IMG/VR virus record: IMGVR_UViG_3300031994_000017 | Location: 58,023 to 122,022 of that record | Direction: 5' to 3' (one strand) | Origin: a virus | Taxonomy: Duplodnaviria > Heunggongvirae > Uroviricota > Caudoviricetes | DNA: 64,000 nt | Shown here: one piece after another, positions 37,053-55,332 of the stretch | Layout of the letters: each line of letters starts with the position of its first letter | Position numbering within the stretch: position 1 is the first letter of the stretch | Position numbers and translations under genes: made by a program | Notes under the pieces: generated by a model | Database searches by the model: none | The model's input: only the letters and a program-made list of their open reading frames with translations | Told to the model about the DNA's origin: nothing

Positions 37053-38459
37053 TTAAAGTTCAGCAAGTCTATCTTCGTCCATGGTATCAGTTGCGCCACT
37101 CTCTGCCGCAAGGTCGGCCGCAATTCCAGAGAGAACCTTAAAGGAAAAATTCTTATGCTTGTAAGCAGTAAACTTAGGACGATTTACAATGCGAATTACA
37201 ACACCTTCGCGCACATGAGTCTTACCAATAGGGTCAGGGCCATCATAAAATTGTTCAGCAATATCTTTTACATACTCGCCAGGAACAAAGTCTTTTTTAG
37301 TCCAATCATCTGGTTCATCAAGATAACCACGCCACAATACAGGAACACATTTTGCGCCCATTTGTTCGCAACGATAACGCATAAAATCGGGAGTATATTC
37401 AACAACATCTCCATCTTCATTAGTAAAAGTCATGCGATAAACATAGAAATCAGACTGCGGCACAGCTTCTTGAATAACTTTATCAGTATTGGCATCAATC
37501 ATAGCGGAAAGAGGTTTAGGATTACAGCCATAAGAAAATACAGTAGTAGGACCATACTGCTTAGTAAATTTCTTATCAGAAATTTTACTATTCGGAACAG
37601 AAGCCATAATAGGATTACCATCAGTAGTAAAACCTACAATCTCGTAATATACGGTTTCGCCCTTCCAAAGCTTGCCTTCAAAGAATTTAGCATGAGGCTC
37701 GCGGAAAGCATTGCTTCCGTAGAAACCACCATCTTCAAAATCATCAAGAACAACTCGACGAGTACCAGTTACATAACCCCAATCATAAATAGGAGTTCCT
37801 TGCCGACGGAGAATCTTATCCAAAAGAGTGCGCTTATAGCCTTGGAGTTTCGGAAGATAGCCAGTTCGGCCAGAAGTGCCGTGCATCTTCAAGGTAATTT
37901 CAATCTGGTCGCCGGGTTTAAAAGCGTTCATATTATAGACAAGCTGTTCAGTATCTGCGTGCTCTGCGAATAAAGGCGCAATAGGGACAGAGCGCTTACG
38001 AGTTCTATTTCCCTGCCGAGTATAAGTAGAAGAGGAGTGATTACCACGAGGAATATACTTGCGGCAAATCTCATGACCATTTACAATATCAATTTTATCG
38101 CCTACTTCAAACCTAGTTTCGCCAGTGTAAGCAAGACTAATAAGTGGCATAAAAAGTCCTTCAGATTTTTCACCACGCAACTTCATGGCGCGAATATTGC
38201 GCTTTTCCGGATCAAGGTAGCCACCAGCAGGATTACCATTCTCATCCTTGCGCCGCACAAGGTCATTTACCTTACAGTACTCTTCACTCAACTGAAGATC
38301 AATAGGGAAATAAACACCAATATCACCAAGCTGAGTGCTAAGATCTACAATCACATTGTTGCTAAAAATAGTAGCAATTTGAAGTCTATCCGCATTAGAA
38401 TGAGGATGAAGTTCATTAATTTTCACAATATAAGCAACATGTTCGCTCATTTTTATCAC
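37053..38459 (-). CDS. RNA ligase-like nucleotidyltransferase (K-x-H-G) with an N-terminal tRNA-binding OB (Myf-like) domain
   Basis: N-terminus KINELHPHSNADRLQIA...KLRGEKSEGLF; motif I LKMHGTSGR. Confidence 0.45.
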   Translation of the reverse strand: MIKMSEHVAYIVKINELHPHSNADRLQIATIFSNNVIVDLSTQLGDIGVYFPIDLQLSEEYCKVNDLVRRKDENGNPAGGYLDPEKRNIRAMKLRGEKSEGLFMPLISLAYTGETRFEVGDKIDIVNGHEICRKYIPRGNHSSSTYTRQGNRTRKRSVPIAPLFAEHADTEQLVYNMNAFKPGDQIEITLKMHGTSGRTGYLPKLQGYKRTLLDKILRRQGTPIYDWGYVTGTRRVVLDDFEDGGFYGSNAFREPHAKFFEGKLWKGETVYYEIVGFTTDGNPIMASVPNSKISDKKFTKQYGPTTVFSYGCNPKPLSAMIDANTDKVIQEAVPQSDFYVYRMTFTNEDGDVVEYTPDFMRYRCEQMGAKCVPVLWRGYLDEPDDWTKKDFVPGEYVKDIAEQFYDGPDPIGKTHVREGVVIRIVNRPKFTAYKHKNFSFKVLSGIAADLAAESGATDTMDEDRLAEL

Positions 38460-38462
38460 TCC

Positions 38463-39636
38463 TTAATTTTCATTTTTTTCTACTAGTTCTCTTTGATGCT
38501 GAATTGCTTCTTCAACGGTAGTATAGGTTCTACCATCAGTGCAAGTCCATTCAGCATAAGAAAGGGTAAGCATAGATTTAATTTTATTTTTTTCGGTCTT
38601 AGACATACCGGTTTTATAAGTTTCCGCATGAGGATAGGGAATAAGTTTAGACATTTTTACTCGCATCCAACCCTGACCATTCTGCTGTCCTGCTAAAACG
38701 GGAACAAAACAAACCGCAAAAACTGAACTACCTTCTGTGTAAATTTTAAAGACATCAACATCGCATTTATAATCTTTATGCCACATAGTAATAATTTCTT
38801 TAGCCATTTTTATTATTCCTTTCGATAAATATATTTTGCTGCTTCTTCCGGTGTGTAATACACCATTTTCCCGATAGCTTCAGGAATAATAGTAAATTCT
38901 GCTGGATACTCAGAGGACAGTTTTGCTCCCCAATAATTCTGAGCTTCCAAATAAATTAAATAATGTAACTCCTTATTAAATATAGTAATATATTTTACCA
39001 CATATTTAATAACATTATTACCAACAGGGTAAAAAAGTGAGTCACCAGGAGCAATAATTAAATTTACAGTATTCATATTATTTATAAAATGTCTAACTTT
39101 TTAATTTCTTCGGTAGAAGAAATAGGATTTGAAACTTCACTAGCGGACATAATAAGTCTTTTCATTTCATCATACTGCCATCGCACTTGCTCTTGTGCTT
39201 CACTAACTCGCTTGTCCGCCACTTGTTGTGCCGAGGTCAAGAGCATTTGATATTCTTTAAGATTTTCATTATCCTCGCCGCGCACCTTTTCTTTTCTTAA
39301 AAATTTCTTCCATTTACGATAATCTCGCCATGTAAGAAACTTAATAAATTGCGGTTCATCTCCAACTCTAAGATTTTCTTCATTAACTTTGAAATAAACC
39401 GGCATTACAAAATATTTATAGCCATTATCCTTAATTTGGGCCGTTTTCCAACCATCTGGGTCTGCTTGATAAAGAGCAAGCCATTGTGTAAATTTTAAAT
39501 AAGTAGTATTTTCTTCTTTTAAATCACAATCATCGCGCCAAAAATAGCTAGTGGATGGCAGAAAATCATTTTGATAAGTACTTAAACAATTACATTTTTC
39601 ATGAGTTTTATATGAAACAAATTTCATAAGTATCAC
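38463..39636 (-). CDS. Three hypothetical proteins (38463..38807, 38813..39076, 39082..39636)
   Basis: ORF track. Confidence 0.35.
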
Positions 39637-39639
39637 CTC

Positions 39640-39921
39640 TTACTCGGCAGATAATGTAATTCCTTGCTCTTCAAGCTGACTGACTGCCATATAAATCATC
39701 TTTTTGCGACTTCTACTTTGCGTTTTTCGAATAAGACCCATTTTATTTAGTTCAGAAAGGATGCGAGCCATCTTCTGAGAAGAGCGGCCATGTAGAGTCA
39801 TACTTTTACTACAAATTTCTTCAATAGTCAAAGCAACAGGAGATTCTGACAAAACATTCAAAGTCTCAAACTCAAGCATCCGATTTTCAGCTTTTGAACT
39901 TCCTCTATTCCTACCAGGCAT
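39640..39921 (-). CDS. Small winged-helix or DNA-binding-like regulator
   Basis: 93 aa, basic (RKTQSRSRKKMIYMAV). Confidence 0.3.
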   Translation of the reverse strand: MPGRNRGSSKAENRMLEFETLNVLSESPVALTIEEICSKSMTLHGRSSQKMARILSELNKMGLIRKTQSRSRKKMIYMAVSQLEEQGITLSAE

Positions 39922-40002
39922 TTTTATTTTCCCCTTTCTCTTTATCTTACACTTATATTATATCATATTTTTTAAATAAAATCAATAAAAACTCCGGTGT
40001 TT

Positions 40003-41283
40003 TTATTTACCGGAGTTTTTTATTCTTTCCATAGCAGTTTCTAATTCTTCAGCCTTTTGGCGGATATATATATCATTTTTAATTATTTCTTTTCGGATAA
40101 TTTTATCAATTTTATCTGCGCATTTTATAAACTGTGGAATATCCCATCCTTTAGTCACCATGGCCGCGGTGCCGATCCTAATTCCAGAAGCTTGTTTAGG
40201 AGAACGTTTTTCATTGGGAATACAATTTTTATTAACTATAATTCCTTCTGCTTCAAGAGCTTTCTCTACATGACTACCCGATAAATTAGTTTTACTTAAA
40301 TCCAAAAGGAACATATGATTATCTGTCCCATCAGTTACAATATCATAACCCAATTCTTTAAAACGAGAAGCCATAGCATTTGCGCAATTAACAACCTTTT
40401 GGGCATAAGTGGCAAATTCTGGTTTCAATGCTTCTTCAGCGCATATAGCCTTGGCGGCAATAATATGCTGTAAAGGACCACCTTGTGAACCAGGAAATAC
40501 TGCGCTATCAATTTGTTTTGCTAGTTCTGGTCGGCAGAAGATAAGACCACCTCGTGGGCCACGCAGAGTCTTATGAGTGGTAGTGGTGATAATATCCGCA
40601 TATCCAAAAGGAGAGGGATGTACACCACCGGCAATTAAACCAGCGACATGAGCCATATCAACCATAAAGTATGGTTCATAATGAACTTCATAATCATCTC
40701 CATTTGGTAAAGATTCTGAATACGATAACAACGCTTTCTTCTCTTGGATAATATTATAAATCTTTTTATAATCAATAAAACGAGAATAAGCACTAGCTCC
40801 TGCTACTATCAATTGAGGCTTCAAATCTTCAATCTTTTTTGCCAAGTCATCATAATCAATAAAACCATCTTTGTCAAGGTTATAAAAATAAGTATTATAT
40901 AATTTACCAGAAAAATTAACATGGGAGCCGTGCGTTAAATGGCCGCCATTTTTTAGATCCATAGCCAAAATTCTATCTCTAGGTTTTAGTACTGCCATAT
41001 ATGCGGCAAAATTTGCTTGCGAGCCGCTGTGTGGTTGGACATTTACATGATAATCAGTCTTAAAAACTTCTTGCCATTTTTGTTGACAATAATTTTCAAT
41101 TTTATCAACAATTTCACAACCGCCATAATAACGCGCCCCAGGGTATCCTTCCGAGTACTTGTTGGTTAAACAAGACCCCATCGCGCGTTTAATATCTTCA
41201 CTTACAAAGTTTTCAGAAGCAATTAACTAAACAGTATTAGCTTGTCTTTCTTCTTCTTGCTTAATTAAATCAAAAACAATTGA
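40003..41283 (-). CDS. glyA: Serine hydroxymethyltransferase (1 in-frame TAG near the N-terminus)
   Basis: LIASENF, HLTHGS and TTTHKTLRGPRGG. The N-terminus MSIVFDLIKQEEERQANTV[TAG]LIASENFVSEDIKRA runs into the 40003..41181 ORF. Confidence 0.65.
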
Positions 41284-41286
41284 CAT

Positions 41287-42075
41287 TTAATGAGTATCTC
41301 CTTCGTAATAAAAATTAGGGTCTTTTTTAAGCCACCAATCAATTTCGCCTGTTTCCGCGTAGTTATTCCAACGGTCTACAATAGTTTGAAGTGGCTCAAT
41401 ATCAGTATAATACATTTCAACCCCTGGCCGCACTAAACGGTCATCATGATAATGGCCAAAAAGCCAAATTTTCCAATTAGCAGTTTTTTGGACACTATTT
41501 AAAAATTTTTCCATAGTTTTATCTATTTTCTTTTGGTCTATAGCAGATAAAAATAAATCAGTAGGCTCCCACGGCAAAGGGCAAGTATGAGTTAATACTA
41601 AATCTACAGTTAAATTTTGAGAGAAAATAAGAATTTTACTTCGTTCATGTTCATTTAACATTTCATTAGCAAACCAACCTGTTGCTTTTGGGTTATTATT
41701 TTCTTCAGTATATCCAGCTCTAAAAATACGATACCATTTATCAACAGAATATGCTCCCCCAATAGTAAAAGTAATAATACCATTAAAATTATAAAGTCCG
41801 CCATCCATTAAATAACGAATATGCGGAAATTGTGTTTCCATGTAGACATATTCATTTACTTCTGGGTCATACAAGTAAGACATCGTAGGAATGTCTTCAG
41901 GTCGTGCTTCATGATTGCCTCTTAGACAGTAAAAAGTAAATCCTAAATCTTCGGCTTGCTGTTTTAGTTTTTGATCCTTTTTATTAAGATAAAAATTAAA
42001 ACCACAATCTCCTAAACAAATGATAGCTGTTTCTGTTGGATTATATACAAGATGTAAATCAATAAAGCGGTCAAG
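41287..42075 (-). CDS. Metallophosphoesterase (start uncertain; 1 TAG near the N-terminus)
   Basis: VSDLHGKLDRF...LGDCGFNFY...CLRGNHEARPED... continuing into the 41287..41883 ORF (THTCP, GHYH). Confidence 0.45.
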   Translation of the reverse strand, partial: LDRFIDLHLVYNPTETAIICLGDCGFNFYLNKKDQKLKQQAEDLGFTFYCLRGNHEARPEDIPTMSYLYDPEVNEYVYMETQFPHIRYLMDGGLYNFNGIITFTIGGAYSVDKWYRIFRAGYTEENNNPKATGWFANEMLNEHERSKILIFSQNLTVDLVLTHTCPLPWEPTDLFLSAIDQKKIDKTMEKFLNSVQKTANWKIWLFGHYHDDRLVRPGVEMYYTDIEPLQTIVDRWNNYAETGEIDWWLKKDPNFYYEGDTH

Positions 42076-42135
42076 CTTACCATGTAAGTCACTAACCTGT
42101 GACTAGCCAATAACTAATCACAATTCATTCCTCCT

Positions 42136-42432
42136 TTACTTGTAAAATTCTTTACCATAATCAGTAATCCAATATACCTTTTTATTATTTCCATTGTCAG
42201 AACTTGCCGCCATGCCTCTTGAAATCAAAGGCCGCAAAGCTCCAGCAATTTTAGCAGGAGTTACAATAATACCATAATTCTTTTTTGTGAGTCTGCTAAT
42301 ATCATTGGCAGATGAACATCCATAAGTTAGAAGAGTTTGAATAATCATTTCACGCTGTTCGTTCATATTATTGATTTTCTCCTTTATTATTTTTTCTATA
42401 TATATTATAACATATTTTTTTATAAAAAGCAA
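42136..42432 (-). CDS. Small hypothetical protein
   Basis: ORF track; the likely start is the internal MNEQRE. Confidence 0.3.
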   Translation of the reverse strand: MLFIKKYVIIYIEKIIKEKINNMNEQREMIIQTLLTYGCSSANDISRLTKKNYGIIVTPAKIAGALRPLISRGMAASSDNGNNKKVYWITDYGKEFYK

Positions 42433-42491
42433 AAAAATCCTCTTTTTAAAGATTAAAAAGAGGATTTTTTTATTAGTTATCTTTTTATTAT

Positions 42492-44048
42492 TTACTTAAT
42501 ACAACTGTATCTTTCATCGTTAAGCTTATCAAGCATAAGCTCAATACCAGTCTTATTCTTCATAATCTGCTCAAAGATGGAAGCACTCATACCACTTACA
42601 TAAGAAACACTAGGGCCATCATCCAAAATTGTATTTTGACGAGCCTGTACATTCCAATAAATAAGCTTGGGCATTTGATATCCAGCATGATTCCACTTAT
42701 ATCGCATATTTTCCATCATGGTCTTGGTATTATCTGAACGATGATAATAACTATAATAACCACCTCTGGCAGCATCAATTTCCATATCACTAATTACAAT
42801 GATAGAACCAGGAAGATCTTCTTGCGCCAAATGGTTTTTAATAGCAGTATTTAGCACGAGGTCAAAAGCAGCTTCAAGATTGGTATTCTCACAAAGGTTG
42901 GTGGAATAAATTCTTTCTACCTTATCTACAAAATCAACGCCTTCAGTCTTAATTAGCTGGGGAGAACGACTAAAGGAAATATAATTTCCATGGAAAGGAC
43001 CTTTAGCCTTTTCTGCGCAATACAAACCAAGTGAAATTGCGACATTGATAGGGGCCGCAGCATCTGTGCCCCACATAGAGCCAGAAGTATCTACCATAGC
43101 AAGCGCGTTAAGATTTGCTCCATTAAAATAATCTGTAAGATTATCCCAATACTTATTAATCATAAGACGTTCGGTATTATCAAGAGGAATTTCTTCTCGC
43201 CCATACCAACTATAATGACTATGATAAGTAAGATTATAAGCCTTTGCTACAACCTCATAAGGATAAAGATCCTTAGCATTTACTTTAGTGGTAGTATCTT
43301 TAGCGAAATCCGCATAAGACTTTACGTTTTTGTTCTTCATGCGCTCAACATCGTGGCGCGCAAAAGCATTACGATAAATAAAGCCAGCCTTAGAAGGAAT
43401 TTTATCAAATTCAATCTTATCCCACTCATTTGCGCTCATAAGACGTTCAAGCACATTAATACGTTTCCGCAGCACAGACAAAGTCTTACGATATTGCTGA
43501 TGCGTCATATTAAAATAATTCCGAGTTTTATTACCAAGCAAACGACTCTCAGGGCTAGAAGTATTTTCACTTTTCAGCCACTTAGCCAGCAAAGAAGGAG
43601 TCTTACACTGAACATCCAAAGCAAGCTGATGTTTCATCAACTTAAAAGCGTCCTTCTCTACAGGAGTGCCAACAAAGGTATAGAGGTCATCCCATCTACC
43701 ATACAGAGGCACACAATCAAGATTTACGCGTACATCATCGGGATATGCATTTGCGAGCCACTTTGCGCATACGCGCCAAAAACGTCTTTCACCCTGGCCG
43801 CCACGCACATCGCGCAAATAAAACAGACACTTAAGCGCGTAAAGACGATCCTCTTCATAAGCGTTCTTAAAAAGAAGGATAACATCTGCATCACTTCTGG
43901 TCCGATATGCGCCACCAAAAGCAAACATATCATAAACTGCGCTCAAGGTAGACTTATGCGCCAGGCCGCCGTTCTCAGTCAACTTATAATTAGTGTCTTT
44001 AGTCATAGCATCAATAAGCTTACTCATATTTTTTCTCCTTTTTCTCAA
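42492..44048 (-). CDS. Ro60/TROVE-like N-terminal domain plus a C-terminal vWA domain (Rsr-like architecture)
   Basis: 518 aa; MIDAS VDTSGSMWG in the C-terminal third; helical N-terminal region (ALKCLFYLRDVRGGQGERRFWRV). Confidence 0.35.
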   Translation of the reverse strand: MRKRRKNMSKLIDAMTKDTNYKLTENGGLAHKSTLSAVYDMFAFGGAYRTRSDADVILLFKNAYEEDRLYALKCLFYLRDVRGGQGERRFWRVCAKWLANAYPDDVRVNLDCVPLYGRWDDLYTFVGTPVEKDAFKLMKHQLALDVQCKTPSLLAKWLKSENTSSPESRLLGNKTRNYFNMTHQQYRKTLSVLRKRINVLERLMSANEWDKIEFDKIPSKAGFIYRNAFARHDVERMKNKNVKSYADFAKDTTTKVNAKDLYPYEVVAKAYNLTYHSHYSWYGREEIPLDNTERLMINKYWDNLTDYFNGANLNALAMVDTSGSMWGTDAAAPINVAISLGLYCAEKAKGPFHGNYISFSRSPQLIKTEGVDFVDKVERIYSTNLCENTNLEAAFDLVLNTAIKNHLAQEDLPGSIIVISDMEIDAARGGYYSYYHRSDNTKTMMENMRYKWNHAGYQMPKLIYWNVQARQNTILDDGPSVSYVSGMSASIFEQIMKNKTGIELMLDKLNDERYSCIK

Positions 44049-44056: not shown

Positions 44057-44787
44057 TCTATTACTAGATAACCAGATATTTTTTATTCAAAATATCTGAA
44101 AAACAATTTATTTTAGATAAATCAGTATAGGGAATTCTGTATAAAGGAATGTTATGAGATAAACAATAATCATTTTTTATTTTATCTCTCATTTGGTTCT
44201 TTGATAAATTAAAAAATCCTTCTTCAAAGTGCTATTTACCATCATATTCTATTAAATATTTTAAATTGTTATTTTCATCAAAAATAGCAAAATCAAAACG
44301 ACATAAATAACCTTTTTCTGTTTTACAATTCTAAAAACTGTATTCTTGTTTAAAAAGAATATTATTTTTTTGTAAAATAGAACTTATCTTTTTTTCACCA
44401 AAAGATTTAATACATCCACAACTTTTACTTTTTCCAGATAACAAAGAACCAATTTCAACATCTCGCTCTGTTCCGCAAGAACATTTACAATGCCAATAAT
44501 AAGAACCAGTAGAGGTTTTTTTATCTGTTCTATATAAAGCAATCCATTCTCCAAATTTCTAATTTGTAATATCTTTTGGCTAAAACTAATTTTTTATTGT
44601 AGTATTTTTTTTAATACAACCACAACTCTTAGTATTATTATTTTTTAAATTAGAACCTAAAACTTCAACTTTATTACCACAATCACACTAACATAACCAA
44701 TAATAACCATGTTTGGAGGATTTTGTTTTATATAAAACTTTTAATTTACCAAACTAACAATTTGCTAAATCTAATGTTTTAGGCATT
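44057..44787 (-). mobile_element. PD-(D/E)xK (DUF559/Vsr-like) putative homing endonuclease with two duplicated N-terminal DNA-binding modules; at least 6 in-frame TAG codons
   Basis: Repeats FGKLKVLYKT...YYWLC[TAG]CDCG and FGEWIALYRTD...YYWHCKCSCG. The C-terminus has YLCRFDFAIFDEN...LIEYDGK[TAG]HFEE. Confidence 0.4.
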
Positions 44788-45657: not shown

Positions 45658-45746
45658 TGGTGCCGGGGAGGGGATTTGAACCCCCAATCCCTCACGGGCG
45701 TCGGATTTTAAGTCCGATGCATATACCTAAATTCTGCCACCCCGGC
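45658..45746 (-). tRNA. tRNA-Leu(TAA), class II, CCA encoded
   Basis: GCCGGGGTGGCAGAAT...CGGACTTAAAATCCG...GGGGTTCAAATCCCC...CGGCACCA. Confidence 0.7.
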
Positions 45747-45754
45747 ATTTATTA

Positions 45755-46069
45755 TTATCTAATGTTATTTAGATATTCTTCTTCAGTAATTTCTTCCCAA
45801 GTGGTATAGTCAGAAATAGAGTCATAATAATCTTCTCGGTCTTCTTCAGATTCCCAATCTTCATCCCAACCAGTTACTACATACTCATAGGATTCTGCGT
45901 ACTCATAGGCGAAATTATCTGCACAAGATTCAATATAAAAAGGATCAGAATTAATATCTTCTTCTGTGACCATGATATATTCATCCCAGTCACAACCACA
46001 GTAACCATTTCCACCGGATAAATGAAAATAACGCATAATTTTACTCCTTTTTTTATTATCTAGACTCAT
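45755..46069 (-). CDS. Acidic hypothetical protein
   Basis: 104-aa ORF. Confidence 0.35.
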   Translation of the reverse strand: MSLDNKKRSKIMRYFHLSGGNGYCGCDWDEYIMVTEEDINSDPFYIESCADNFAYEYAESYEYVVTGWDEDWESEEDREDYYDSISDYTTWEEITEEEYLNNIR

Positions 46070-46141
46070 TAAAAAACATCTTCTAAAATCCCAAATTCTA
46101 TGATTATTTTTTTAATAAATTGCTGTGTGAGTCTAATTACA

Positions 46142-46217
46142 TGGCAGGGGAAGTGAGGCTCGAACTCACAACCTACGGTTTTAGAGACCGTCGCTCTAGC
46201 CGATTGCGCTATTCCCC
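46142..46217 (-). tRNA. tRNA-Sup(CTA), an amber suppressor: anticodon stem ACGGT/ACCGT with loop CTCTAAA
   Basis: GGGGAATAGCGCAATCGGCTAGAGCGACGGTCTCTAAAACCGTAGGTTGTGAGTTCGAGCCTCACTTCCCCTGCCA. Confidence 0.65.
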
Positions 46218-46276
46218 AATATAAAAACAAGACAGTATATTAATTGCTTTATCCTCTAAGCTAACTTTCCTATTCA

Positions 46277-46345
46277 TGGCGGAAGGTATCGGAATCGAAC
46301 CGATGATACATTAAATAATGTATTTGCTGTAACTGTCTTTATCTT
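46277..46345 (-). pseudogene. tRNA-like 3' fragment with a CCA end and T-arm (ATCGGTTCGATTCCGAT) but no canonical 5' acceptor strand
   Basis: Sequence inspection. Confidence 0.25.
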
Positions 46346-46390
46346 ACATATATATTATATCATATTTTTTTTAAAAAATCAAATTAATAT
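46330..46390 (-). promoter_or_regulatory. Conserved promoter motif (copy)
   Basis: TTGATTTTTTAAAAAAAAATATGATATAATATATATGTAAGATAAAG on the minus strand. Confidence 0.5.
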
Positions 46391-46449
46391 TTTTAATTTA
46401 TAAAACCAAAAGTGAAAATATAATACCTAAATATTATAATTAATAACAT

Positions 46450-46716
46450 TTATTTAGCCAATCAGAATCTTTCCAAGTATAATTTCTAAAGGTAAGTAAA
46501 TTCATTCTTGCTAAATATCGTCCTAAAATATTTTTACCTTTATACATTATGGTTATTTTTTCCCAATATTTTTTAATATATGGATAATCTAAAGCTTTTA
46601 ATACTGGCAAAAATGTATTTATATTATAAGGATCAATAATATTTATTAACTCTTGTTTTGTATGCTCAGTATAAAATTGTTTATTTTTTTTCTAATAATA
46701 CTAATGTTTCATTAAA
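46450..46716 (-). CDS. Small hypothetical protein (2 TAG codons)
   Basis: MKH[TAG]YY[TAG]KKNKQFYTEHTKQELINII... Confidence 0.25.
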
Positions 46717-47521
46717 TAAGTCCTTCAATATATGCTCTATCTTCGGTAAGAATAGGCATTTCATCATCAATATACCAAGGATGACGTGTAATTACAATAC
46801 CATTTTCTGTCTCAGTAGATGCTAAATATCGCCGCACAAAAGAGCCTCTCTTTTCGGGAATTGAATAATCATCCCAATTAATTCCCTTTTGGAAAAGCAT
46901 TTCTTGAATATCTGCTTGAGATTTACCATTTAATTCCTTATGACTGAATTGTGCCTGGCCAGCAGCTTGGATACTATTTCTTGTAGCATCCTTTTGGCGC
47001 CAAATAAAATAATTACAAACCTCTTCTTTAGGAATATTAAATGCTCGCGCATCAAAAGTTGCTCTAAATTGTTTAGGACACCAAAGATTATATTTATCCC
47101 AATAGCGTTCATTATCACCTTCAAAAGAATGTTGTGTCATAGCATCATAAGATTTCACTGTTTCAGCAACTTGGTAATTGAAAACTGCGGTAGCACGTGC
47201 GGCCGCAAGGGTAGTAATCTTTTGAAGATTATAGTCAAACCAAGCATCAGTATCAATATTTTGATAATCAATTAAAAGAAGAGAAATTTCATCACTCTGG
47301 ACATATCCACCAACACAACCTTGAATACCTGCGCAAAGAGATTTACAAGTTTCTTGCATCATACGCATAAAGTCGGCATCAAAGGGTCTATCAAGACCGC
47401 GAGTAAAAGTGTGAAAAGCATTACCATCTACTCGGATGATTACAGGCATACGCCGAGTTAGATAAAATCTATATCGGTTTTCATAGAAGTCTTTCATTCT
47501 ATCGCCAAGAGTATCTTTCAT
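46712..47521 (-). CDS. Thg1-like protein (tRNA-His guanylyltransferase / 3'-5' polymerase family)
   Basis: PVIIRVDGNAFHTFTRGLDRPFDADF matches the Thg1/TLP N-terminal catalytic signature; strong SD (AAGGAGGG). Confidence 0.55.
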   Translation of the reverse strand: MKDTLGDRMKDFYENRYRFYLTRRMPVIIRVDGNAFHTFTRGLDRPFDADFMRMMQETCKSLCAGIQGCVGGYVQSDEISLLLIDYQNIDTDAWFDYNLQKITTLAAARATAVFNYQVAETVKSYDAMTQHSFEGDNERYWDKYNLWCPKQFRATFDARAFNIPKEEVCNYFIWRQKDATRNSIQAAGQAQFSHKELNGKSQADIQEMLFQKGINWDDYSIPEKRGSFVRRYLASTETENGIVITRHPWYIDDEMPILTEDRAYIEGLI

Positions 47522-47529
47522 AATTTCCC

Positions 47530-47585
47530 TCCTTTATTTTCTATATATATTATAATATATTTTTTTAAAAAAATCAAATTATTTG
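47530..47585 (-). promoter_or_regulatory. Conserved promoter motif (copy)
   Basis: TTGATTTTTTTAAAAAAATATATTATAATATATATAGAAAATAAAGG on the minus strand. Confidence 0.5.
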
Positions 47586-47890
47586 TCTTTAAACCATTTG
47601 CGCCATTCGGCATTCAGATATTCTTCTTTATTTTTATAACGCTGTGTATATTCTATAGTATGCGGATGAGATATATCAGTTAAATCTTTATAATAATCTT
47701 TTTCAGTTTCTTCTTTAGACCAGCGAAATCTATAATCGTGAATATCCCAAGTATTATAATATCTTTTATATTTGCGGCCATGGGGAATATTTTCCTCTTT
47801 CCGCACACGCTTATTAGCTTTACGTTTAAAGTATTTACGCCCTTTTTTATGATCGGTGCATATGGGCGTTTTCTTATAGCTTCTGGACAT
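47579..47890 (-). CDS. Highly basic small protein
   Basis: 103 aa, Lys/Arg-rich. Confidence 0.35.
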   Translation of the reverse strand: MSRSYKKTPICTDHKKGRKYFKRKANKRVRKEENIPHGRKYKRYYNTWDIHDYRFRWSKEETEKDYYKDLTDISHPHTIEYTQRYKNKEEYLNAEWRKWFKDK

Positions 47891-47949
47891 ATTGTAATTC
47901 CTCCTTAATAAAAGTAATTACATAAAAATACATCCTTTCTATTATCTAT

Positions 47950-48039
47950 TGGCGGGAGCGGTAGGATTTGAACCCACGGACGGAAAACCGCCTCTTGTTT
48001 TCAAGACAAGCGCCATAAACCAGACTCGGCCACACTCCC
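47950..48039 (-). tRNA. tRNA-Ser(TGA), class II
   Basis: GGGAGTGTGGCCGAGTCTGG...CTTGTCTTGAAAACAAG...GGGTTCAAATCC...CCGCCA. Confidence 0.7.
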
Positions 48040-48144
48040 ATATTACAAGACTCCTACTATACTTTGCCGACATATAGTTTTAATAAAAATGGAGGCTATT
48101 AATTTTGCTGTAAGAGTCTTTGTTTGTTAACAAAAATTAATTAA

Positions 48145-49387
48145 TTAAGGCCATTCACCCAACGGCTTACCCAACTTACCAACTTCAATATCAGTATTAA
48201 AATACACACCCTGAACAGCTTCACCTGTAAGAATGTCCTTAGCAATGTCCTGATACAAAGTGCTAACCACACCATGACAATCATTAAGATTATCATTAAA
48301 GAACTGTACAACACAGTTCTTAAATACAACATAAGTCATAGCAAACCAATTATATCCATCTTCTACTGGAGAAACAGCATAAGCAAAAGCGGGATTCTTT
48401 TCAAAAGCAGTTTCAAAGAGTTCCTTCTTACTTACAAAAGCTCGATTACTAGGAACACCATCTACCATAACCTTCAAGATAACATTGCCGCAATAAATTT
48501 CACTAGGCAAAATTTGCGTAAGAGCCGTTACCTTATCCGAGTTATTACAAGCAAGAATAATAAAAGGCTCTGGACCGCTCCAATTCACATTACAAGCAAT
48601 CTGAGGGTCTCCATCAAACAAAGCTTCAATTTCATGGATATAAGTAACCCAAGGAGGGGAAATCTTTAAACGAACATTATCCATTTCTGTCTCCTTTACA
48701 TATTTTCAAAAGTAGCTACCGCGCTTTCAGTTTCCGTTACTTCAAGGCAGGCATTTTTATAATATTTGCGCATTTGCTCATAAAAATCTTGTGCCTGCTT
48801 CAGCTCATTACTAGCAATATTCAACTTCTTCAAAGCTCTCTTCATGCGCTTACGAGCAATCTTATGAGCACATCTTGCGGTTGCAAGGTCTTTACCTTTT
48901 TCAAGATCAAACCGGTCATTAGGAGCGCACTTAGCAATACCACGAACAGCCTTACCAGCGTAAGTTGAAAGAGCAATTACCTTATTACCAGCGGTAATAT
49001 ACTTATAATTATACATATTTTTTCTCCTTAATTATTTTTCATTTTCTATATATATTATACTAAATTTTTTAAATAAAATCAAATTTTGTTTCTTTTTATT
49101 TTTAAAGTACAAGATTGATAAATAGGAATTATTAGAAAATTTTCTATTTCTTCATATTCATGGTCTATTATTTTCATTTCATTATAAGCGTTTTTTAAAT
49201 AAAGATAAAAATAACATCCTTCTTCTAAAGGGTAATTAATATTAACTTCTATTTTTTCTTCACTTTTATCAAAATTATAATTTATAGTTTTACTTGGTAT
49301 TAATTTATAGCAATCACCATTTTTATATAATGGTTGATATCCCGCCACAACGATTCTTAAATCATCAATTATATCTTGTTTTGTCAC
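48145..49387 (-). CDS. Three hypothetical proteins (48145..48684, 48696..49016 basic, 49079..49387)
   Basis: ORF track. Confidence 0.35.
49040..49090 (-). promoter_or_regulatory. Conserved promoter motif (copy)
   Basis: Same consensus. Confidence 0.5.
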
Positions 49388-49464
49388 AATTATATCCTTT
49401 CTTTTTGAATGTTATAATGATCGGGATCGTGACTGACCCCTAAAGTCGCTAGCTGCTATAACAA

Positions 49465-49540
49465 TGGAGCAAATAGCGGGATTCGAACCCGCCCCTAATG
49501 CTTGGCAAGCACTCGTGCTAACCACTGACACCATACCTGC
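49465..49540 (-). tRNA. tRNA-Gly(GCC)
   Basis: Loop TTGCCAA; T-arm GGGTTCGAATCCC; CCA end. Confidence 0.6.
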
Positions 49541-49579
49541 TTAGGTGTCCCGCCATTTAAACTCTAACGGGCTGAGTTA

Positions 49580-49665
49580 TGGAGCCGAAGGTGAGATTCG
49601 AACTCACGCGGGCTTGCGCCTCTGGGTTACAAATCCAGTGCAATCGACCACTATGCGACTTCGGC
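49580..49665 (-). tRNA. Class II tRNA with anticodon loop TTTGTAA. Loop position gives TGT, but the long variable arm argues against Thr, so the identity is uncertain (Tyr-like?).
   Basis: GCCGAAG...CTGGATTTGTAACCCAG...GTGAGTTCGAATCTCAC...CTTCGGCTCCA. Confidence 0.45.
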
Positions 49666-50182
49666 ATATAAAAATATTCTATCTGAATATTTGTTTTGAT
49701 TTTTACTTATATTGCGCTAACCGCAGTTGCCAATAACCCAGAGATTATAGCCACCCCAACCTCAAAATCAAAAAGAAATAATTCAGATAGAATATTCCGT
49801 TTAATAAAAATTTATAATAAATAATGCGTACTATCCGTAATGGAAGATAGCTATAAATTTTATTAAACTTACATTCTATTTAATCGTCTCGCATTATAGA
49901 CATAACATATTATATCATTCATACCATTACCTTTTTCCACTTACTTCGCTTGTATTTTATTATACTGTCTATCTAAACCGCTTGTATTGCTCCATATCAC
50001 TGACCTGCATATCTTAAAGACGTCGAGGTTGAGTGCCAGGAGTAGTTTAGTGGGAATCCGTGCTTTCTTTGACAGTTTTGCGCTACTATCAGCGCAAGTG
50101 GTGACTCGTAGAGAGTACGATTCTCTATCTGTAGCTTGAGAGGCTACTGTCCTAGGCCAATTAGACGAACGAGCCATATAGA

Positions 50183-50259
50183 TGGTAGCGCGTGAGGGAT
50201 TCGAACCCTGCGCCTCCGGCTTGAAGGGCCGGCGTCTTAGCCTACTTGACTAACGCGCC
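50183..50259 (-). tRNA. tRNA-Glu(TTC) (probable; position 33 is C)
   Basis: Stem CCGGC/GCCGG with loop CCTTCAA. Confidence 0.45.
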
Positions 50260-50559
50260 ATATAAGATAGGTACTTGCTTCGCTTTATTTTAAGTCCCAC
50301 GTAGAATGTACCTTAAAACCTTGGACTAAATAAATAACTTTTCCACGGATCGCTTTTAATTATGTCCGAAATTCTAGCGCGCTCTTAGTTACTGTTGTAT
50401 TCCCCAACCTATCTCGCCCTGTTGAGGAGCCTCGGCCTTGAGGCAAGTTATTTATTAAAACTATTTTCAGCTCGCATCAAAGAGATAGTTTTAAATGCGC
50501 CCAGGAACACCACGTGGAGGTAAATAGTCATCGTCCCCATAGAAAGAATTTATTTCTTT

Positions 50560-50620
50560 CTTTATTTTGTATATATATTATACCAAATTTTTTTTAAAAA
50601 GTCAAATAATTTTCTAAATG
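50560..50620 (-). promoter_or_regulatory. Conserved promoter motif (copy)
   Basis: TTGACTTTTTAAAAAAAATTTGGTATAATATATATACAAAATAAAG on the minus strand. Confidence 0.5.
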
Positions 50621-50704
50621 GTGCGGAATAAGGGACTCGAACCCATACGCCCAAAGGACAACAGCTTCTAAAGCTGCCATGACTACCAATTCCATCAATT
50701 CCGC
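50619..50704 (-). tRNA. tRNA-Leu(TAG), class II
   Basis: Stem GCAGC/GCTGT with loop TTTAGAA; long variable arm. Confidence 0.55.
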
Positions 50705-50730
50705 ATATTAAGCAAGACACTTATAATTTT

Positions 50731-50796
50731 AGAGGGTCGGATTTGAACCGACAATTTCCAATTTTTTAGATTGGCGACTTAACCCTTTGTCTACCC
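50731..50796 (-). pseudogene. Degenerate tRNA-like element (anticodon loop CTAAAAA, weak acceptor stem)
   Basis: Perfect T-arm GTCGGTTCAAATCCGAC, but the acceptor has 2 internal mismatches and no CCA. Confidence 0.25.
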
Positions 50797-50829
50797 AAAA
50801 AATTAAATTTGCTGTAAATGTCTTTAAAA

Positions 50830-50906
50830 TGGTGCGCAAAGTGAGACTTGAACTCACACGCTCTAGCGAGCAATAGGGTTTGAGCCTATCGCGTATACCA
50901 ATTCCG
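50830..50906 (-). tRNA. tRNA-Leu(CAA), class II
   Basis: Stem ATAGG/CCTAT with loop CTCAAAC. Confidence 0.6.
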
Positions 50907-51196
50907 CCATTTGCGCATAAAAGCATTTGAGTGGTCTGCAGCCCAACTCCATTAATGATAGCAGCATCACTACCAGTTTATTTTCCAATTTTTGTTACGC
51001 AAGTCTCGGATAACAAACAAAATTCTGACTCCGTTGATATTTGCGGCAATCACAGCCGATGTCTTACGCGGCTAAGACACAAACCGGTTTTTCTTTTCAT
51101 TTTTATGGGTGAAGGTACAACTCCAATACCAAACCAAGTAATTTTTTGATAACTAATCCTCTATTAGTTACAACGTAAAAATTACCAAAACGAAAC

Positions 51197-51259
51197 TGCG
51201 CCCAATGGGATTTGAACCCATACTTCTTCTAATCAACAAAAAGCGTACTCCCTATTATA
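51197..51259 (-). tRNA. Atypical class I tRNA-like with an anticodon loop containing TGA (GTTGATT), a G:G acceptor mismatch and no CCA
   Basis: GTGGCCATAGTATAATAGGGAGTAC...ATGGGTTCAAATCCCAT. Confidence 0.3.
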
Positions 51260-51264
51260 CTATG

Positions 51265-51339
51265 GCCACATATTTGGCGATCTTGCGGGGAATTGAACCC
51301 CGATCTACGGAGAGACAGTCCGTCATAATAGCCATTATA
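51265..51339 (-). tRNA. tRNA-Asp(GTC)
   Basis: Stem ACGGA/TCCGT with loop CTGTCTC; acceptor GGTCTTG/CAAGATC; CCA. Confidence 0.65.
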
Positions 51340-51344
51340 CCACA

Positions 51345-51433
51345 AGACCATATATGGTGAAAGATATGGGAATTGAACCCATCTGTTTTTCTCGGTGCAA
51401 GCGAGACGACTACCCCATGCAGTCCTATCCCCC
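51345..51433 (-). tRNA. tRNA-Ala(TGC) with G3:U70, A73 and CCA; unusually extended 5' region
   Basis: Stem TCTCG/CGAGA with loop CTTGCAC; acceptor GGGGGAT/ATCTTTC via G:U pairs. Confidence 0.45.
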
Positions 51434-51439
51434 ATCTTT

Positions 51440-51490
51440 CTTTACCTTACATATATATTATATCAAATTTTTTTTAAAAAATCAATTTTA
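51440..51490 (-). promoter_or_regulatory. Conserved promoter motif (copy)
   Basis: Same consensus. Confidence 0.5.
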
Positions 51491-51499
51491 AGATTGAAT

Positions 51500-52098
51500 T
51501 TACCAAGAAGCGTAATCAGTAATATCTTGCTTTGTATTACACTTATCACAAATTATATAAATTACCGAACCAACAGAAGTAGGATATACCTCGTAATAAA
51601 TTTTGCCGCCCTTGCAATCATGATGGCGCGCAATAAATTCGTCTCTTCTACTTCTTTCTTTTGGAGTTGTTACTGCCAATGGTTGAAGTTCTTCTGAAGA
51701 ATAAATAGGATCAAAATCAATAACTTGATTTGAAAAATTATTATTATTCTGTTGTTCTTCTAACTTCTTTAATCTAGTTTCAAAATCATTTAAAGTTTGT
51801 AAAATAGTATCAACCATTATAAATCCTCCAAAATTACATCAGAAAAACTTTCCCATTCATCACGAATCTCTACAAAATTACAAGACTCAAAATCAATGTA
51901 TTCTCCAGTTTCTCCAGAAATAATACAACTACCTACTACAATTCCGCCATAATAAATTGTTGGCATATCTACCAAAGTATAAATAACTTGTGCGGGACGA
52001 GGAAAAGTAAAACCATCCATAGTTTCTTTACAATTTATAAAAAACATAAAAACATCCTTTCTTAAAACACAGGAAGCCAATTGCCGCAACACGGACAC
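51500..52098 (-). CDS. Two small hypothetical proteins (51500..51817, 51817..52098)
   Basis: ORF track. Confidence 0.35.
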
Positions 52099-52214
52099 TC
52101 AATATGCGGATAAGGCATAAGAATAATATCTGGATCATCAAAACTTTCTACAGCAACTTCTGTTCCACAAATTTTACATACACAAGAAAAGACGATAGAT
52201 TTCATTTACTTTTT

Positions 52215-52270
52215 TCCTTTCTTCATTTTCTATATATATTATATCAAAAATTTTTATAAAAATCAAAAAA
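52215..52270 (-). promoter_or_regulatory. Conserved promoter motif (copy)
   Basis: Same consensus. Confidence 0.5.
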
Positions 52271-52424
52271 GCGGTTATAAAAATATAAAATTTATAACCG
52301 CTTTATATAAAATAAAAGAACTAAATAAAACTCTTAATCAGAGTGAGATTTTTCTCTATTATAATATAAAATTATTAAAACAATTTTATATCATTTGGGC
52401 CAGAATTAAAAATCATAAATCTCA

Positions 52425-52842
52425 TCTAACATTTCATCAATTTCTTCCTCTGTAGCGATACGAAGATCAAAAGAATCTCCTCCACCAATGATTAAAGCAC
52501 TTTCTTCTTTTAAGATACGAGCGCCGGGATGAATATATCCTAATCTTACATATTTTGTCGGTAAAACCTCAGTTAAATCTTTTGAAATGCCCTTAACCGC
52601 AACATGTAAATCTAAATTAGGAGTTTCTAAAACTTTACTAGGTATTACTGCGTCACATTCAAGCCCCTCTGCTAAACTAACAACTTTCTTTATATTACCG
52701 GCCTAAAAACTGGCTTTTTTATCTAAATTTGCCCATTTATTGTCAAAACTAAAATGAATTTTATGTCCTATTCGACCTGAAGTTAAAATTTCAGGTCTTA
52801 CTACTTTAATGTTGCCATTAAATACAGAAACTTCAATCATTT
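52425..52842 (-). CDS. Hypothetical protein with 2 TAG codons (coordinates approximate)
   Basis: Open frame MIEVSVFNGNIKVVRPEILTSGRIGHKIHFSFDNKWANLDKKAS[TAG]AGNIKKVV...DLRIATEEEIDEMLDEIYDF. Confidence 0.3.
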
Positions 52843-52910
52843 AAAATCAACTCCTTCTATTATTTTTCAAAAAAAAATAAAGTTGATTATTTATCTTGGC
52901 CCTAATTTTA

Positions 52911-52985
52911 TGGCAGGCCCGAGTGGATTTGAACCACTACCAACAGAGTCAAAGTCTGTTATGCTAACCATTACACAACGGGCCC
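52911..52985 (-). tRNA. tRNA-Gln(TTG)
   Basis: Stem ACAGA/TCTGT with loop CTTTGAC; acceptor GGGCCCG. Confidence 0.6.
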
Positions 52986-52998
52986 ATATCATTAAAAT

Positions 52999-53078
52999 TG
53001 GAGGTTCCGGTTGGATTCGAACCAACGTAACTACTGCTTTGCAGGCAGCGGCCTTGAACCAGACTCGGCAACGGAACC
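52999..53078 (-). tRNA. tRNA-Cys(GCA) (probable)
   Basis: Stem GCTGC/GCAGT with loop CTGCAAA. Confidence 0.45.
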
Positions 53079-53082
53079 ATAT

Positions 53083-53217
53083 TGGTGGGGAAGGACAGGA
53101 TTTGAACCTGCGAAGCTTTTTATAGCACTGAATTTACGCTCATTAATTGCTGTTATCAAGCCTGACTACGAGACTCAGTTATGATTTCAGCCCCTTTGAC
53201 CGCTCGGGAACTTCCCC
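53083..53217 (-). ncRNA. 135-nt tRNA-like RNA. Its ends pair perfectly (GGGGAAG / CTTCCCC followed by A-CCA) and it has a canonical T-arm, but it carries about 45 extra nt.
   Basis: GGGGAAGTTCCCGAGCGGTCAAAGGGG...GCAGGTTCAAATCCTGTCCTTCCCCACCA. Confidence 0.3.
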
Positions 53218-53221
53218 ATAT

Positions 53222-53297
53222 TGGTGGGCCATCCTGGAGTTGAACCAGGGACGCGCAGGGCTTCAACCTGCCGCTCTACCAACTGAGCTAAAGACCC
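53222..53297 (-). tRNA. tRNA-Phe(GAA)
   Basis: D-arm TAGCTCAGTTGGTAGAGC; loop TTGAAGC. Confidence 0.65.
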
Positions 53298-53637
53298 ATA
53301 TATATCATTGATTATCCGGCTCAATGATATAAAGCCTTTATATGTCCCAAACTATAAGTAAAGGATTACATAGTAAATCTGGCTGTTCCTCAAACTCCGT
53401 TTAACTGTTTCACAACGCCATGACTCACTCATGAGAAACCTTCGGGCGAATGCAGCACCAGATTATAGATATAATTTTTTTGTATAAAGAAAACTATAAA
53501 AAAACTTCCCAATCTTTTTAAAACGCCGCTATGGGGACGATGCCATCTTAAAAAAAGAGGACCATTAGTTTAATGTAAAAGTGCCCGTTGGACGAAAAGA
53601 TATTTGCATTGGTTAAAAGCGCTATTCATGGCGCCGT

Positions 53638-53714
53638 TGGTGCGGATACACGGACTCGAACCGCGACGTCTCATGCTTGTAAGGCATATGTTTTAACCAG
53701 TTAAACTATACCCG
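53638..53714 (-). tRNA. tRNA-Val(TAC)
   Basis: Loop CTTACAA; acceptor GCGGGTA. Confidence 0.55.
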
Positions 53715-53916
53715 CATATTAAGACAAATCATCAATTTTATCTTCAAATAAAGATTGAATAATAAAATAGGCATATTCAATCAAAGCTTTTCCGTCAATT
53801 TCAATCTCATCATCGTTTTTATGTGTAATTATAACATTACCAGAAAAATCTCCATTATGATGAAAACAATATCCATTTGAACTAGAAAAAGTATGCATAT
53901 AATATTTCTCCTTATA

Positions 53917-54294: not shown

Positions 54295-54345
54295 CTACAT
54301 CCAGATTACAAAGTCAGGCGCTCTACCATATGAGCTAAATTCTCT
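54272..54345 (-). tRNA. tRNA with a TTTGTAA-containing anticodon loop (Thr-TGT-like; imperfect stem)
   Basis: D-arm TAGCTCATATGGTAGAGC; T-arm GTTGGTTCAAATCCAAC. Confidence 0.4.
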
Positions 54346-54366
54346 TTTTAAAGAAGTTTGCTGCAA

Positions 54367-54825: not shown

Positions 54826-54853
54826 ATTTATTATCCTCTAATAAAAAAATATA

Positions 54854-55329: not shown

Positions 55330-55332
55330 ATA

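Follow-up and report, generated by a model that had tools for sequence, protein, structure and literature searches.

An amber suppressor tRNA encoded by a large, tRNA-rich phage and the probable reading of TAG as glutamine in its genes

A 64,000-nucleotide stretch of DNA from a virus of the class Caudoviricetes (IMG/VR record IMGVR_UViG_3300031994_000017, positions 58,023 to 122,022), referred to here as the window, encodes on its minus strand, at positions 46142-46218, a real and canonical phage elongator tRNA with the anticodon CUA. This tRNA is an amber suppressor which, when charged with glutamine (Gln), would allow the TAG-bearing genes of the same phage to be translated, and we put the probability of this overall reading at about 0.87. 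The sequence of the window is found letter for letter at positions 17,845-81,844 of a 150,422-bp ENA metagenome contig (ERZ27256871 k141_3267896), and the 73 window genes used here are the gene calls of that contig, which were made with TAG as Gln. The gene and its anticodon are located as follows.

46142..46218, minus strand: amber suppressor tRNA(CUA), 77 nt including the encoded CCA, from ARAGORN and Rfam RF00005
46182..46184, minus strand: anticodon CUA (positions 34-36), TAG on the plus strand, from reading of the sequence and alignment to the tRNA model

A preliminary description of this DNA had recognized the tRNA by its loop CTCTAAA, with CTA at positions 34-36 and thus a reading of UAG, and this is confirmed by ARAGORN, by the Rfam model and by reading the sequence by hand. 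The description had placed the gene at 46142-46217 without giving a strand; the position is correct to within one base, the 5' U actually lying at 46218, and the strand is minus. When ARAGORN and a covariance model were applied, as the description had proposed, the anticodon CUA was kept and the region scored as a tRNA: the Rfam tRNA model RF00005 matches 46145..46218 (minus) over the full model (1-71) with 57 bits, the gathering score being 29, at E = 2.8e-10 in a 15-kb search and 6.5e-12 in a local search. ARAGORN and the Rfam model agree on the same cloverleaf, and the label "tRNA-Pyl" that ARAGORN attaches to the gene is the name it gives to any CUA anticodon.

The sequence reads 5'-U GGGGAA UA GCGC AAUCGGCUA GAGC G ACGGU CUCUAAA ACCGU AGGUU GUGAG UUCGAGC CUCAC UUCCCC U G CCA-3'. 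Its acceptor stem (2-7/66-71) is GGGGAA/UUCCCC, followed by U8 and A9; the D-loop AAUCGGCUA contains G18G19; the anticodon stem ACGGU/ACCGU has 5 bp and closes a 7-nt loop of C32 U33 C34 U35 A36 A37 A38; and the T arm is GUGAG-UUCGAGC-CUCAC. The conserved tertiary nucleotides of an elongator type I tRNA (U8, G18G19, U54 U55 C56) are all present, together with U33, and with a variable loop of 5 nt the suppressor lacks the long variable arm of a type II tRNA derived from Ser, Leu or Tyr. Position 1 (46218) is a U that faces U72, forming a U.U mismatch, and the discriminator is G73. No other CUA tRNA was found in the inspected part of the source contig, 79 kb in length.

The relatives of this region consist of 33 loci on IMG/VR viral contigs of 100-240 kb, compared over +/-10 kb. 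A CUA tRNA occurs in 13 of 30 related IMG/VR loci, always inside a tRNA array. Across nine aligned CUA homologues the loop CUCUAA is invariant and 16 of the 20 base pairs show compensatory double changes, which speaks for a functional tRNA under selection. The exact suppressor sequence was found nowhere else in IMG/VR.

The need for such a tRNA is visible in the genes. Once TAG is dropped from the set of stops, the longest open reading frame (ORF) of the window grows from 788 to 1250 codons, and the ORFs of at least 300 codons add up to 11,925 codons instead of 8,031. There are 75 in-frame TAG codons in 20 of the 73 window genes, and none of the 73 needs TAG as its stop, the stops being TAA in 64 and TGA in 9. 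These codons, and the Gln-like columns in which they stand, are found in the same genome as the suppressor, in keeping with the earlier proposal that it is the decoding component for TAG recoding. The genes in which the distribution of TAG is most telling are listed below.

22248..25982, minus strand: late protein of 1244 aa, function unassigned, 18 in-frame TAG (CAA 29, CAG 2)
16103..18688, minus strand: fibre-like protein of 861 aa, 10 in-frame TAG (CAA 17, CAG 0)
18716..19840, minus strand: glycosyltransferase-2/TPR protein, 6 in-frame TAG
11765..12889, minus strand: endolysin (Amidase_2 and SH3), 4 in-frame TAG
9400..10659, minus strand: PIN/PhoH protein, 5 in-frame TAG
44061..44786, minus strand: DUF2726 protein, 8 in-frame TAG, 1.4 kb downstream of the suppressor
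375..989, minus strand: GIY-YIG homing endonuclease, 6 in-frame TAG
40003..41286, minus strand: serine hydroxymethyltransferase (SHMT), one TAG, at codon 20 (41227-41229)
26275..44027, minus strand: block in which about 40 genes for replication, nucleotide metabolism and RNA repair share just 3 in-frame TAG and can be read in the standard code

TAG is thus concentrated in the block from 9.4 to 26 kb and in two nuclease-like genes (GIY-YIG and DUF2726). The late block from 12.9 to 26 kb holds 42 TAG against about 4 CAG, whereas the early genes use CAG freely (16 in one, 12 in another) and TAG almost never. In the late genes TAG has in effect replaced CAG as a Gln codon, and it looks as though TAG arose by CAG-to-TAG transitions that were tolerated only where the suppressor is available.

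The amino acid was assigned by comparing codons, in DNA, with the loci of relatives and with standard-code bacterial homologues, and by this comparison TAG in the window genes is best read as Gln. Thirty TAG columns of the window have non-TAG codons in relatives, and in 14 of them (47%) the majority is CAA or CAG; the comparable figure for alignment to Gln in columns where the window itself has CAA or CAG is 43%. A likelihood was computed for each amino acid with substitution frequencies learned from the same alignments, and it places Gln first, ahead of lysine (Lys) by 36 and of glutamate (Glu) by 37 natural-log units, with tryptophan (Trp) outside the best eight. When the 1244-aa protein is aligned with locus L040 (69% identity), TAG is paired with CAA 8 times, with CAG 3 times, with TAG 5 times and with other codons 4 times, such that 11 of 15 non-TAG partners are CAA or CAG. 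For this protein no relative was found in IMG/VR, and the protein database gave one diverged relative only.

Single conserved positions give the same answer. The TAG at endolysin residue 127 (FWI-x-FEICDD) corresponds to CAG in 12 of 12 bacterial (Clostridia) homologues, ten of which have no in-frame TAG of their own, and at residue 16 the TAG corresponds to CAA or CAG in six of the 12 and to His in five. In the PhoH protein, the TAG at residue 373 (GDIKSxVDL) takes the place of the Q of GDxTQxDL, the GDxxQxDL motif, in PDB 3b85 and in E. coli YbeZ, and one relative has TAG at the DEAQN box and at an upstream Q motif where E. coli YbeZ has Q. A count of Q in 120 PhoH homologues was rejected as circular because the database proteins of the relatives are already translated with TAG as Q; in one relative's gene, 12 TAGs are displayed as Q in the database protein.

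With the amino acid assigned in this way, the suppressor is probably charged with Gln, most likely by the host glutaminyl-tRNA synthetase (GlnRS), a view that draws on its identity elements and on published work on similar phage tRNAs. The elements that E. coli GlnRS recognises are the central U35 and G36 in the anticodon and, elsewhere, the discriminator and the pairs 1-72, 3-70 and 10-25 (PMC9976931). The suppressor carries U35, G73, an unpaired U1.U72, G2-C71, G3-C70 and G10-C25 of this set. The preliminary description had pointed to G73, U1:A72 and the pair 3:70 as elements that bear on GlnRS charging; G73 and G3-C70 are there, along with G2-C71 and G10, and U1:A72 gives way to the unpaired U1.U72. 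By the published E. coli rules, U1.U72 is compatible with charging by GlnRS and, if anything, favourable to it (PMC9976931). In E. coli extract, 28 of 29 phage tRNAs(CUA) inserted Gln (2025 preprint, PMC12636597). In line with charging by the host, no Pfam match to an aminoacyl-tRNA synthetase or a release factor is on record for the 79 kb inspected.

Several observations pull the other way. The GlnRS determinant G36 is replaced by A36, necessarily so in an amber suppressor, and both supE and su+7 are glutaminylated despite A36 (PMC2965240, PMC9976931). The approximately 70 kb of the contig beyond the inspected part could encode an aminoacyl-tRNA synthetase or a release factor. The host is probably a Clostridium-class Firmicute of the animal gut (Ruminococcaceae/Oscillospiraceae), an assignment made from endolysin homologues only, and a host lacking GlnRS would need the indirect route of glutamyl-tRNA synthetase (GluRS) and GatCAB. 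Among the TAG codons themselves, SHMT codon 20 faces GAA in 5 of 5 relatives and Glu in 5 of 5 solved SHMTs, within the motif LELIASENF, and PhoH residue 54 faces arginine (AGA) in relatives. Both may be real substitutions or nonsense mutations rescued by the suppressor; SHMT codon 20 would be either a tolerated Glu-to-Gln change or a rescued nonsense mutation. Finally, the purine preference after TAG that would be expected for context-optimised suppression was not seen among the TAG codons, T being slightly enriched instead (chi-square p = 0.02), and there is therefore no evidence of context tuning.

The indirect route deserves to be weighed first. In this case Gln would still be inserted, through a non-discriminating host GluRS followed by GatCAB amidation in a host without GlnRS. 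The probable Clostridium-class host, the infection of Bacillus by the closest cultured relatives as judged by DUF2828, the general statement that many Firmicutes are without GlnRS (PMC9976931) and the conservation of U1 in most homologues all lend it some weight. However, reliance on U1-A72 is reported for the amidotransferase and for GluRS2, and reliance on a modified U34 for the GluRS of B. subtilis (PMC9976931). The suppressor has neither, since it carries C34 and U1.U72, and its homologues show C.U or G.A at 1:72, while a mismatched 1:72 suits the binding mode of GlnRS better. With the reported determinants absent from the suppressor, we rate the indirect route as a minor rival and an unlikely one.

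A different amino acid, Lys or Glu, or a mixture of these with Gln, is quite improbable. The anticodon CUA shares U35 with the anticodons for Lys and Glu, codons for Lys are the second commonest partners of TAG (AAA 16, AAG 5), the SHMT codon sits at a universally conserved Glu, and lysyl-tRNA synthetase (LysRS) often mischarges amber suppressors (PMC2965240, PMC1483225). Against this stand the 36-37 units of likelihood given above and the invariant-Gln columns at which TAG is found (endolysin Q127 in 12 of 12, the Q of the PhoH motif), and the same admixture of K and E is carried by the window's CAA/CAG columns. The suppressor is also without the acceptor pair G1-C72 of tRNA-Glu, and its G73 is not the discriminator for Lys, which in E. 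coli is A73.

The body of the suppressor raises the question of Trp, with TAG read as Trp by a tRNA that derives from tRNA-Trp and is still charged by tryptophanyl-tRNA synthetase (TrpRS). In local alignments with the E. coli trpT and glnV loci the suppressor is 77% identical to tRNA-Trp and 66% to tRNA-Gln, Trp is the nearest isotype both in the window and among 671 distinct phage tRNAs (0.74, with Gln narrowly behind at 0.72), the anticodon loop departs from that of tRNA-Trp at position 35 only, and G73 is common to both. The suppressor body is thus at least as tRNA-Trp-like as it is tRNA-Gln-like. Descent from tRNA-Trp is suggestive for the window suppressor and is not claimed, because the margin over Gln is small and the suppressors of the family are inconsistent. 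Charging by TrpRS is nevertheless very improbable: TGG stands opposite none of the window's TAG columns and opposite one of the relatives' TAGs, whereas the window's Trp columns align to Trp at about 70%, and Trp is not among the eight likeliest amino acids. The TrpRS determinants C35 and A1-U72 (PMC9976931) are both changed in the suppressor, which retains only G73 and A36 of the features of bacterial tRNA-Trp, and E. coli tRNA-Trp(CUA) is no longer recognised by TrpRS and is charged by GlnRS (PMC2965240).

There is likewise very little room for the view that the suppressor is decaying or non-functional and that TAG is read through by a host suppressor or another phage factor. Suppressor tRNAs were detected in only about 40% of TAG-recoded phages (Borges et al., 10.1101/2021.08.26.457843), and several other tRNAs of the array look degenerate, such as Phe(AAA) and those without CCA; the window suppressor, however, combines 57 bits, an intact cloverleaf and an encoded CCA with the compensated pairs and the invariant anticodon loop of its homologues, and it is the sole CUA tRNA of the 79 kb. 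A tRNA-Pyl is known by a compact D-loop without G18G19, the lack of a canonical T-loop, a 6-bp anticodon stem, a 3-nt variable loop and accompanying pylS/pylBCD genes. Pyrrolysine can be dismissed: apart from the anticodon CUA, the structure of the suppressor is the opposite, since its D-loop has the canonical GG, its T-loop is UUCGAGC, its anticodon stem measures 5 bp and its variable loop 5 nt, and two bases separate its acceptor stem from its D stem. Moreover, there are no pyl gene families among the Pfam matches for the 79 kb, and TAG aligns with Gln.

The mismatch at 1:72 recurs in other CUA tRNAs. Among CCA-ending tRNAs of the related loci, 1:72 is non-Watson-Crick in eight of nine CUA tRNAs (the ninth has U-A) against 11 of 188 others, an enrichment with Fisher p ~1e-8 in which several copies are near-identical; C.U or G.A is seen in homologues, and U1 is kept in most of them. 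When the comparison is widened to IMG/VR CUA tRNAs that have the anticodon arm CGGUCUCUAAAACCG in common, a mismatch at 1:72 is found in 13 of 52, against 5 of 243 other tRNAs (p ~2e-7). The wider sample is heterogeneous, with G-C/A73 types, A-U/G73 types and many tRNAs with long variable arms, and the window suppressor, of the type UGGGG...CCCC-Y-G-CCA, represents one recurrent subclass within it.

It may be imagined that the non-Watson-Crick 1:72 is a selected identity switch on a tRNA-Trp-like scaffold, which destroys the A1-U72 determinant of TrpRS, pre-opens the acceptor end for GlnRS and compensates for the missing G36, and that the suppressor is moreover a substrate of a Thg1-like enzyme, whose templated replacement of nucleotide 1 would tune or time the suppressor and with it the code switch. 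Taken jointly this is a speculation with low odds. A protein of the Thg1 family (tRNA-His guanylyltransferase/3'-5' polymerase; Pfam Thg1 92 bits, E = 3.8e-26) is encoded at 46712-47521 (minus), inside the tRNA array region and 0.5 kb upstream of the suppressor. The phage tRNA-His already has an encoded G-1, which makes a role of the Thg1-like protein in tRNA 5'-end repair more likely, and because no homologue of its ORF turned up in the related loci compared at codon level, it is not tied to the suppressor.

The relatives display some further variants. CUA tRNAs with long variable arms (84-95 nt), often with G73 and the same anticodon arm, occur in L034 (4538-4632), L047 (phAss-1; 6079-6166) and many of the loci L048-L166; a long variable arm is the architecture that seryl-tRNA synthetase recognises independently of the anticodon, and such CUA tRNAs may insert Gln or Ser. 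In the related phage locus L022 (2186-2257), a tRNA with the anticodon UCA, an opal suppressor, takes the place of the CUA tRNA, and L007 holds a tmRNA inside its tRNA array (6949-7258) with the tag peptide ADYSAYKMAA.

Several known systems resemble the one in the window. The best match in GenBank phages is the tRNA-Sup-CTA of phAss-1 (OQ749652, "Caudoviricetes code 15 clade", Babkin et al. 2023, PMC10607447), with 79% full-length identity. Both tRNAs have the acceptor UGGGGA.../...UCCCC, a mismatched 1:72, G73, an identical anticodon loop and an encoded CCA, and both adjoin a tRNA-Leu(UAA) in a large tRNA set. In phAss-1, TAG in 41 ORFs is read as Gln and no aminoacyl-tRNA synthetase is encoded by the phage. 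The two phages are nevertheless unrelated at the nucleotide level, the 1:72 mismatch is U.C in phAss-1 and U.U in the window, and the single suppressor gene of the window contrasts with three in phAss-1, of which one has a long variable arm.

The code-15 gut phages in general (crAss-like, Lak and Garnet; Borges et al., 10.1101/2021.08.26.457843, PMC9523058) share with the window a CUA tRNA, TAG in structural or lysis genes, early genes compatible with the standard code, a low GC content and a host synthetase presumed to charge the tRNA, and for two crAss-like phages TAG as Gln was shown by metaproteomics (Peters et al. 2022, PMC9523058). The window belongs to another lineage, with IMG/VR relatives of 150-240 kb, cultured homologues in Bacillus phages and a probable Clostridium-class host, and unlike those phages it shows no "code change module" of release factor 2 and an aminoacyl-tRNA synthetase in the 79 kb inspected.

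Two classical E. coli suppressors are also close. In su+7 (supU), tRNA-Trp with C35 changed to U, recognition by TrpRS is lost and GlnRS attaches Gln to the tRNA(CUA) (Yaniv et al. 1974, as related in PMC2965240 and PMC9976931). The window suppressor shares with su+7 the Trp-like body, the loop CUCUAAA and G73, and differs from it at 1-72, where su+7 keeps A1-U72 and the window has U1.U72. The glnV suppressor supE (CUA), which reads UAG as Gln, shares U1, G2-C71, G3-C70, G4, G5, G73 and CCA with the window suppressor, from which it differs in overall identity (66%), in the Trp-like anticodon loop and stem of the latter, and in having U-A at 1:72 rather than a mismatch. A code-15 phage amber suppressor is of a kind already well documented, and what is mildly new are the enrichment of the 1:72 mismatch and the Trp-like scaffold.

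The suppressor belongs to a large tRNA array in which, along the direction of transcription, only one gene follows it. The tRNA-Gln(UUG) said earlier to share its cluster was indeed found, 6.7 kb away, and beyond the array no further tRNAs were found within 10 kb. The array and the features that bear on the suppressor are listed here.

45658..57799, minus strand: array of 31 tRNA genes, all on the same strand (ARAGORN, Rfam)
52911..52985, minus strand: tRNA-Gln(UUG) with G1.U72, G2-C71, G3-C70 and G73, reading CAA, and CAG by wobble (ARAGORN)
55493..55567, minus strand: tRNA-Trp(CCA), whose loop CUCCAAA is one base off the suppressor loop, the most similar tRNA in the window (66%)
46354..46382, minus strand: candidate sigma-70-like promoter TTGATT-17-(TG)TATAAT, upstream of a tRNA-like element and the suppressor, by consensus match only

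The promoter candidate has 10 of 12 consensus bases plus an extended -10, and promoter-like matches in the same AT-rich stretch are not significantly enriched (19 against 12.7 +/- 2.9). The tRNA-like element lies directly upstream of the suppressor at 46221-46330 (minus). Its T-arm, AUCGG-UUCGAUU-CCGAU, is perfect, and it also has an acceptor-like 3' strand with GCCA at its end and a D-arm-like hairpin. It matches the Y-RNA-like family YrlA over its full length below threshold (28.5 bits, gathering score 69; local E = 2.8e-4), in a match that leaves the Ro-binding stem unmatched, and a second weak YrlA match lies at 55150-55220. For the tRNA-like 3' half at 46265-46300, a search nearby found no 5' half. 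Another T-arm plus acceptor-like half, GCGAUGCCAGUUCGAAUCUGGUAUCCCGGUCCA, lies at 45610-45657 (minus), right after the CCA of tRNA-Leu(UAA), and is followed by seven T; a tRNA-like terminator or a processing signal at the array's end would be possible functions.

Within the array there are oddities on the minus strand at 54270-54345, 50727-50801, 54377-54471 and 51196-51270, and the odd tRNAs include one whose anticodon loop has 8 nt (UUGU) and which has a relative in L005 that is annotated as Thr, a tRNA-Phe(AAA) with a low score, a 95-nt tRNA-Ile(UAU) with an insertion, and several without an encoded CCA. Despite the high frequency of AAA codons, no tRNA-Lys was called in the array. The twister-P1 ribozyme family gives a weak match below threshold within the array, at 57295-57348 (minus; 27 bits against a gathering score of 67), which is probably due to chance.

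The phage itself is virulent-looking, has a size of 150 kb, comes from an animal-gut or rumen metagenome and belongs to a lineage that has been little described. The window is AT-rich, with a GC content of about 33%, and the genome encodes gyrase A and B, a split NAD-ligase, SHMT, an RNA ligase, PIN/PhoH, an Amidase_2-SH3 endolysin and fibre-like proteins; the endolysin, the fibre-like proteins, the homing endonucleases and the array of 31 tRNAs place the suppressor in a phage context. A megablast of 20 kb gave no nucleotide relatives in GenBank phages. Homologues of its DUF2828 protein occur in 705 GenBank phages, the nearest cultured ones being 160-kb Bacillus phages, while those of the endolysin are found in genomes and metagenome-assembled genomes of Ruminococcaceae, Ruminococcus, Oscillospiraceae and other Clostridia (rumen, caecum).

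Some other genes of the window are worth recording. The 31-tRNA array is accompanied by RNA-repair-type genes at 27079-30708, 37053-38450 and 42492-44027 (minus), which comprise an RNA ligase, an RlaP nucleotidyltransferase, an AAA_33 kinase-like protein, two Metallophos phosphoesterases and the DUF2828/DUF7788 protein; the set suggests a defence against host tRNA-cleaving systems, and the DUF2828 protein has no significant sequence match in PDB. The protein of 32499-33641 (minus) is a divergent adenylosuccinate-synthetase-like one (Pfam E = 5.6e-23), and its identification as PurZ, with a 2-aminoadenine genome, is unsupported, as in PDB it matches PurA entries only, and weakly (E ~1e-5). The NAD-dependent DNA ligase is split (375-2174, minus; L046 11186-12614): its adenylation/OB part lies at 1059-2174 and is followed by the GIY-YIG endonuclease of 375-989, and the HHH/BRCT part forms an ORF of its own shortly beyond the edge of the window. 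A gene of 628 aa at 14195-16081 (minus) forms a 52% GC island with 14 CAG, 6 CAA and no TAG amid the TAG-rich late block, looks recently acquired from a GC-richer, standard-code source, and has an N-terminus resembling that of the Y_phosphatase3 protein at 2493-4439 (plus).

From these elements a course of events may be proposed. The suppressor would be transcribed with the 31-tRNA array and then processed, its CCA being already encoded, and would most likely be aminoacylated with Gln by the host GlnRS. The charged tRNA would decode UAG as Gln in competition with the host release factor 1, and the 20 window genes with 75 in-frame TAG would become translatable, mainly to the benefit of lysis, fibre-like, virion-associated and mobile-nuclease genes. 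The block of genes for replication and nucleotide metabolism, being near TAG-free, could be read early in the host's standard code, and the TAG-containing lysis, fibre-like and other genes would be completed once charged suppressor accumulates. Such a timing by code switch has been modelled before (Borges et al., 10.1101/2021.08.26.457843), with metaproteomic support from crAss-like phages (PMC9523058). The observed distribution of genes fits this published model, and from the two together we infer a probable role in timing and regulation.

The practical meaning is that the window needs to be annotated with genetic code 15, since gene calling in the standard code would break up about 15 genes in addition to those of the endolysin, PhoH and the fibre-like proteins. 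With this lineage, whose members are large, rich in tRNAs and associated with Clostridia of the rumen or gut, TAG-to-Gln recoding gains another clean and well-supported example, and the early/late split of its recoded genes matches the published idea that code switching times the expression of late genes. The recurrent mismatch at 1:72 is a small lead on how phages get a host synthetase to accept a tRNA that reads a stop codon, and is relevant to the mining of phage tRNAs for genetic-code expansion.

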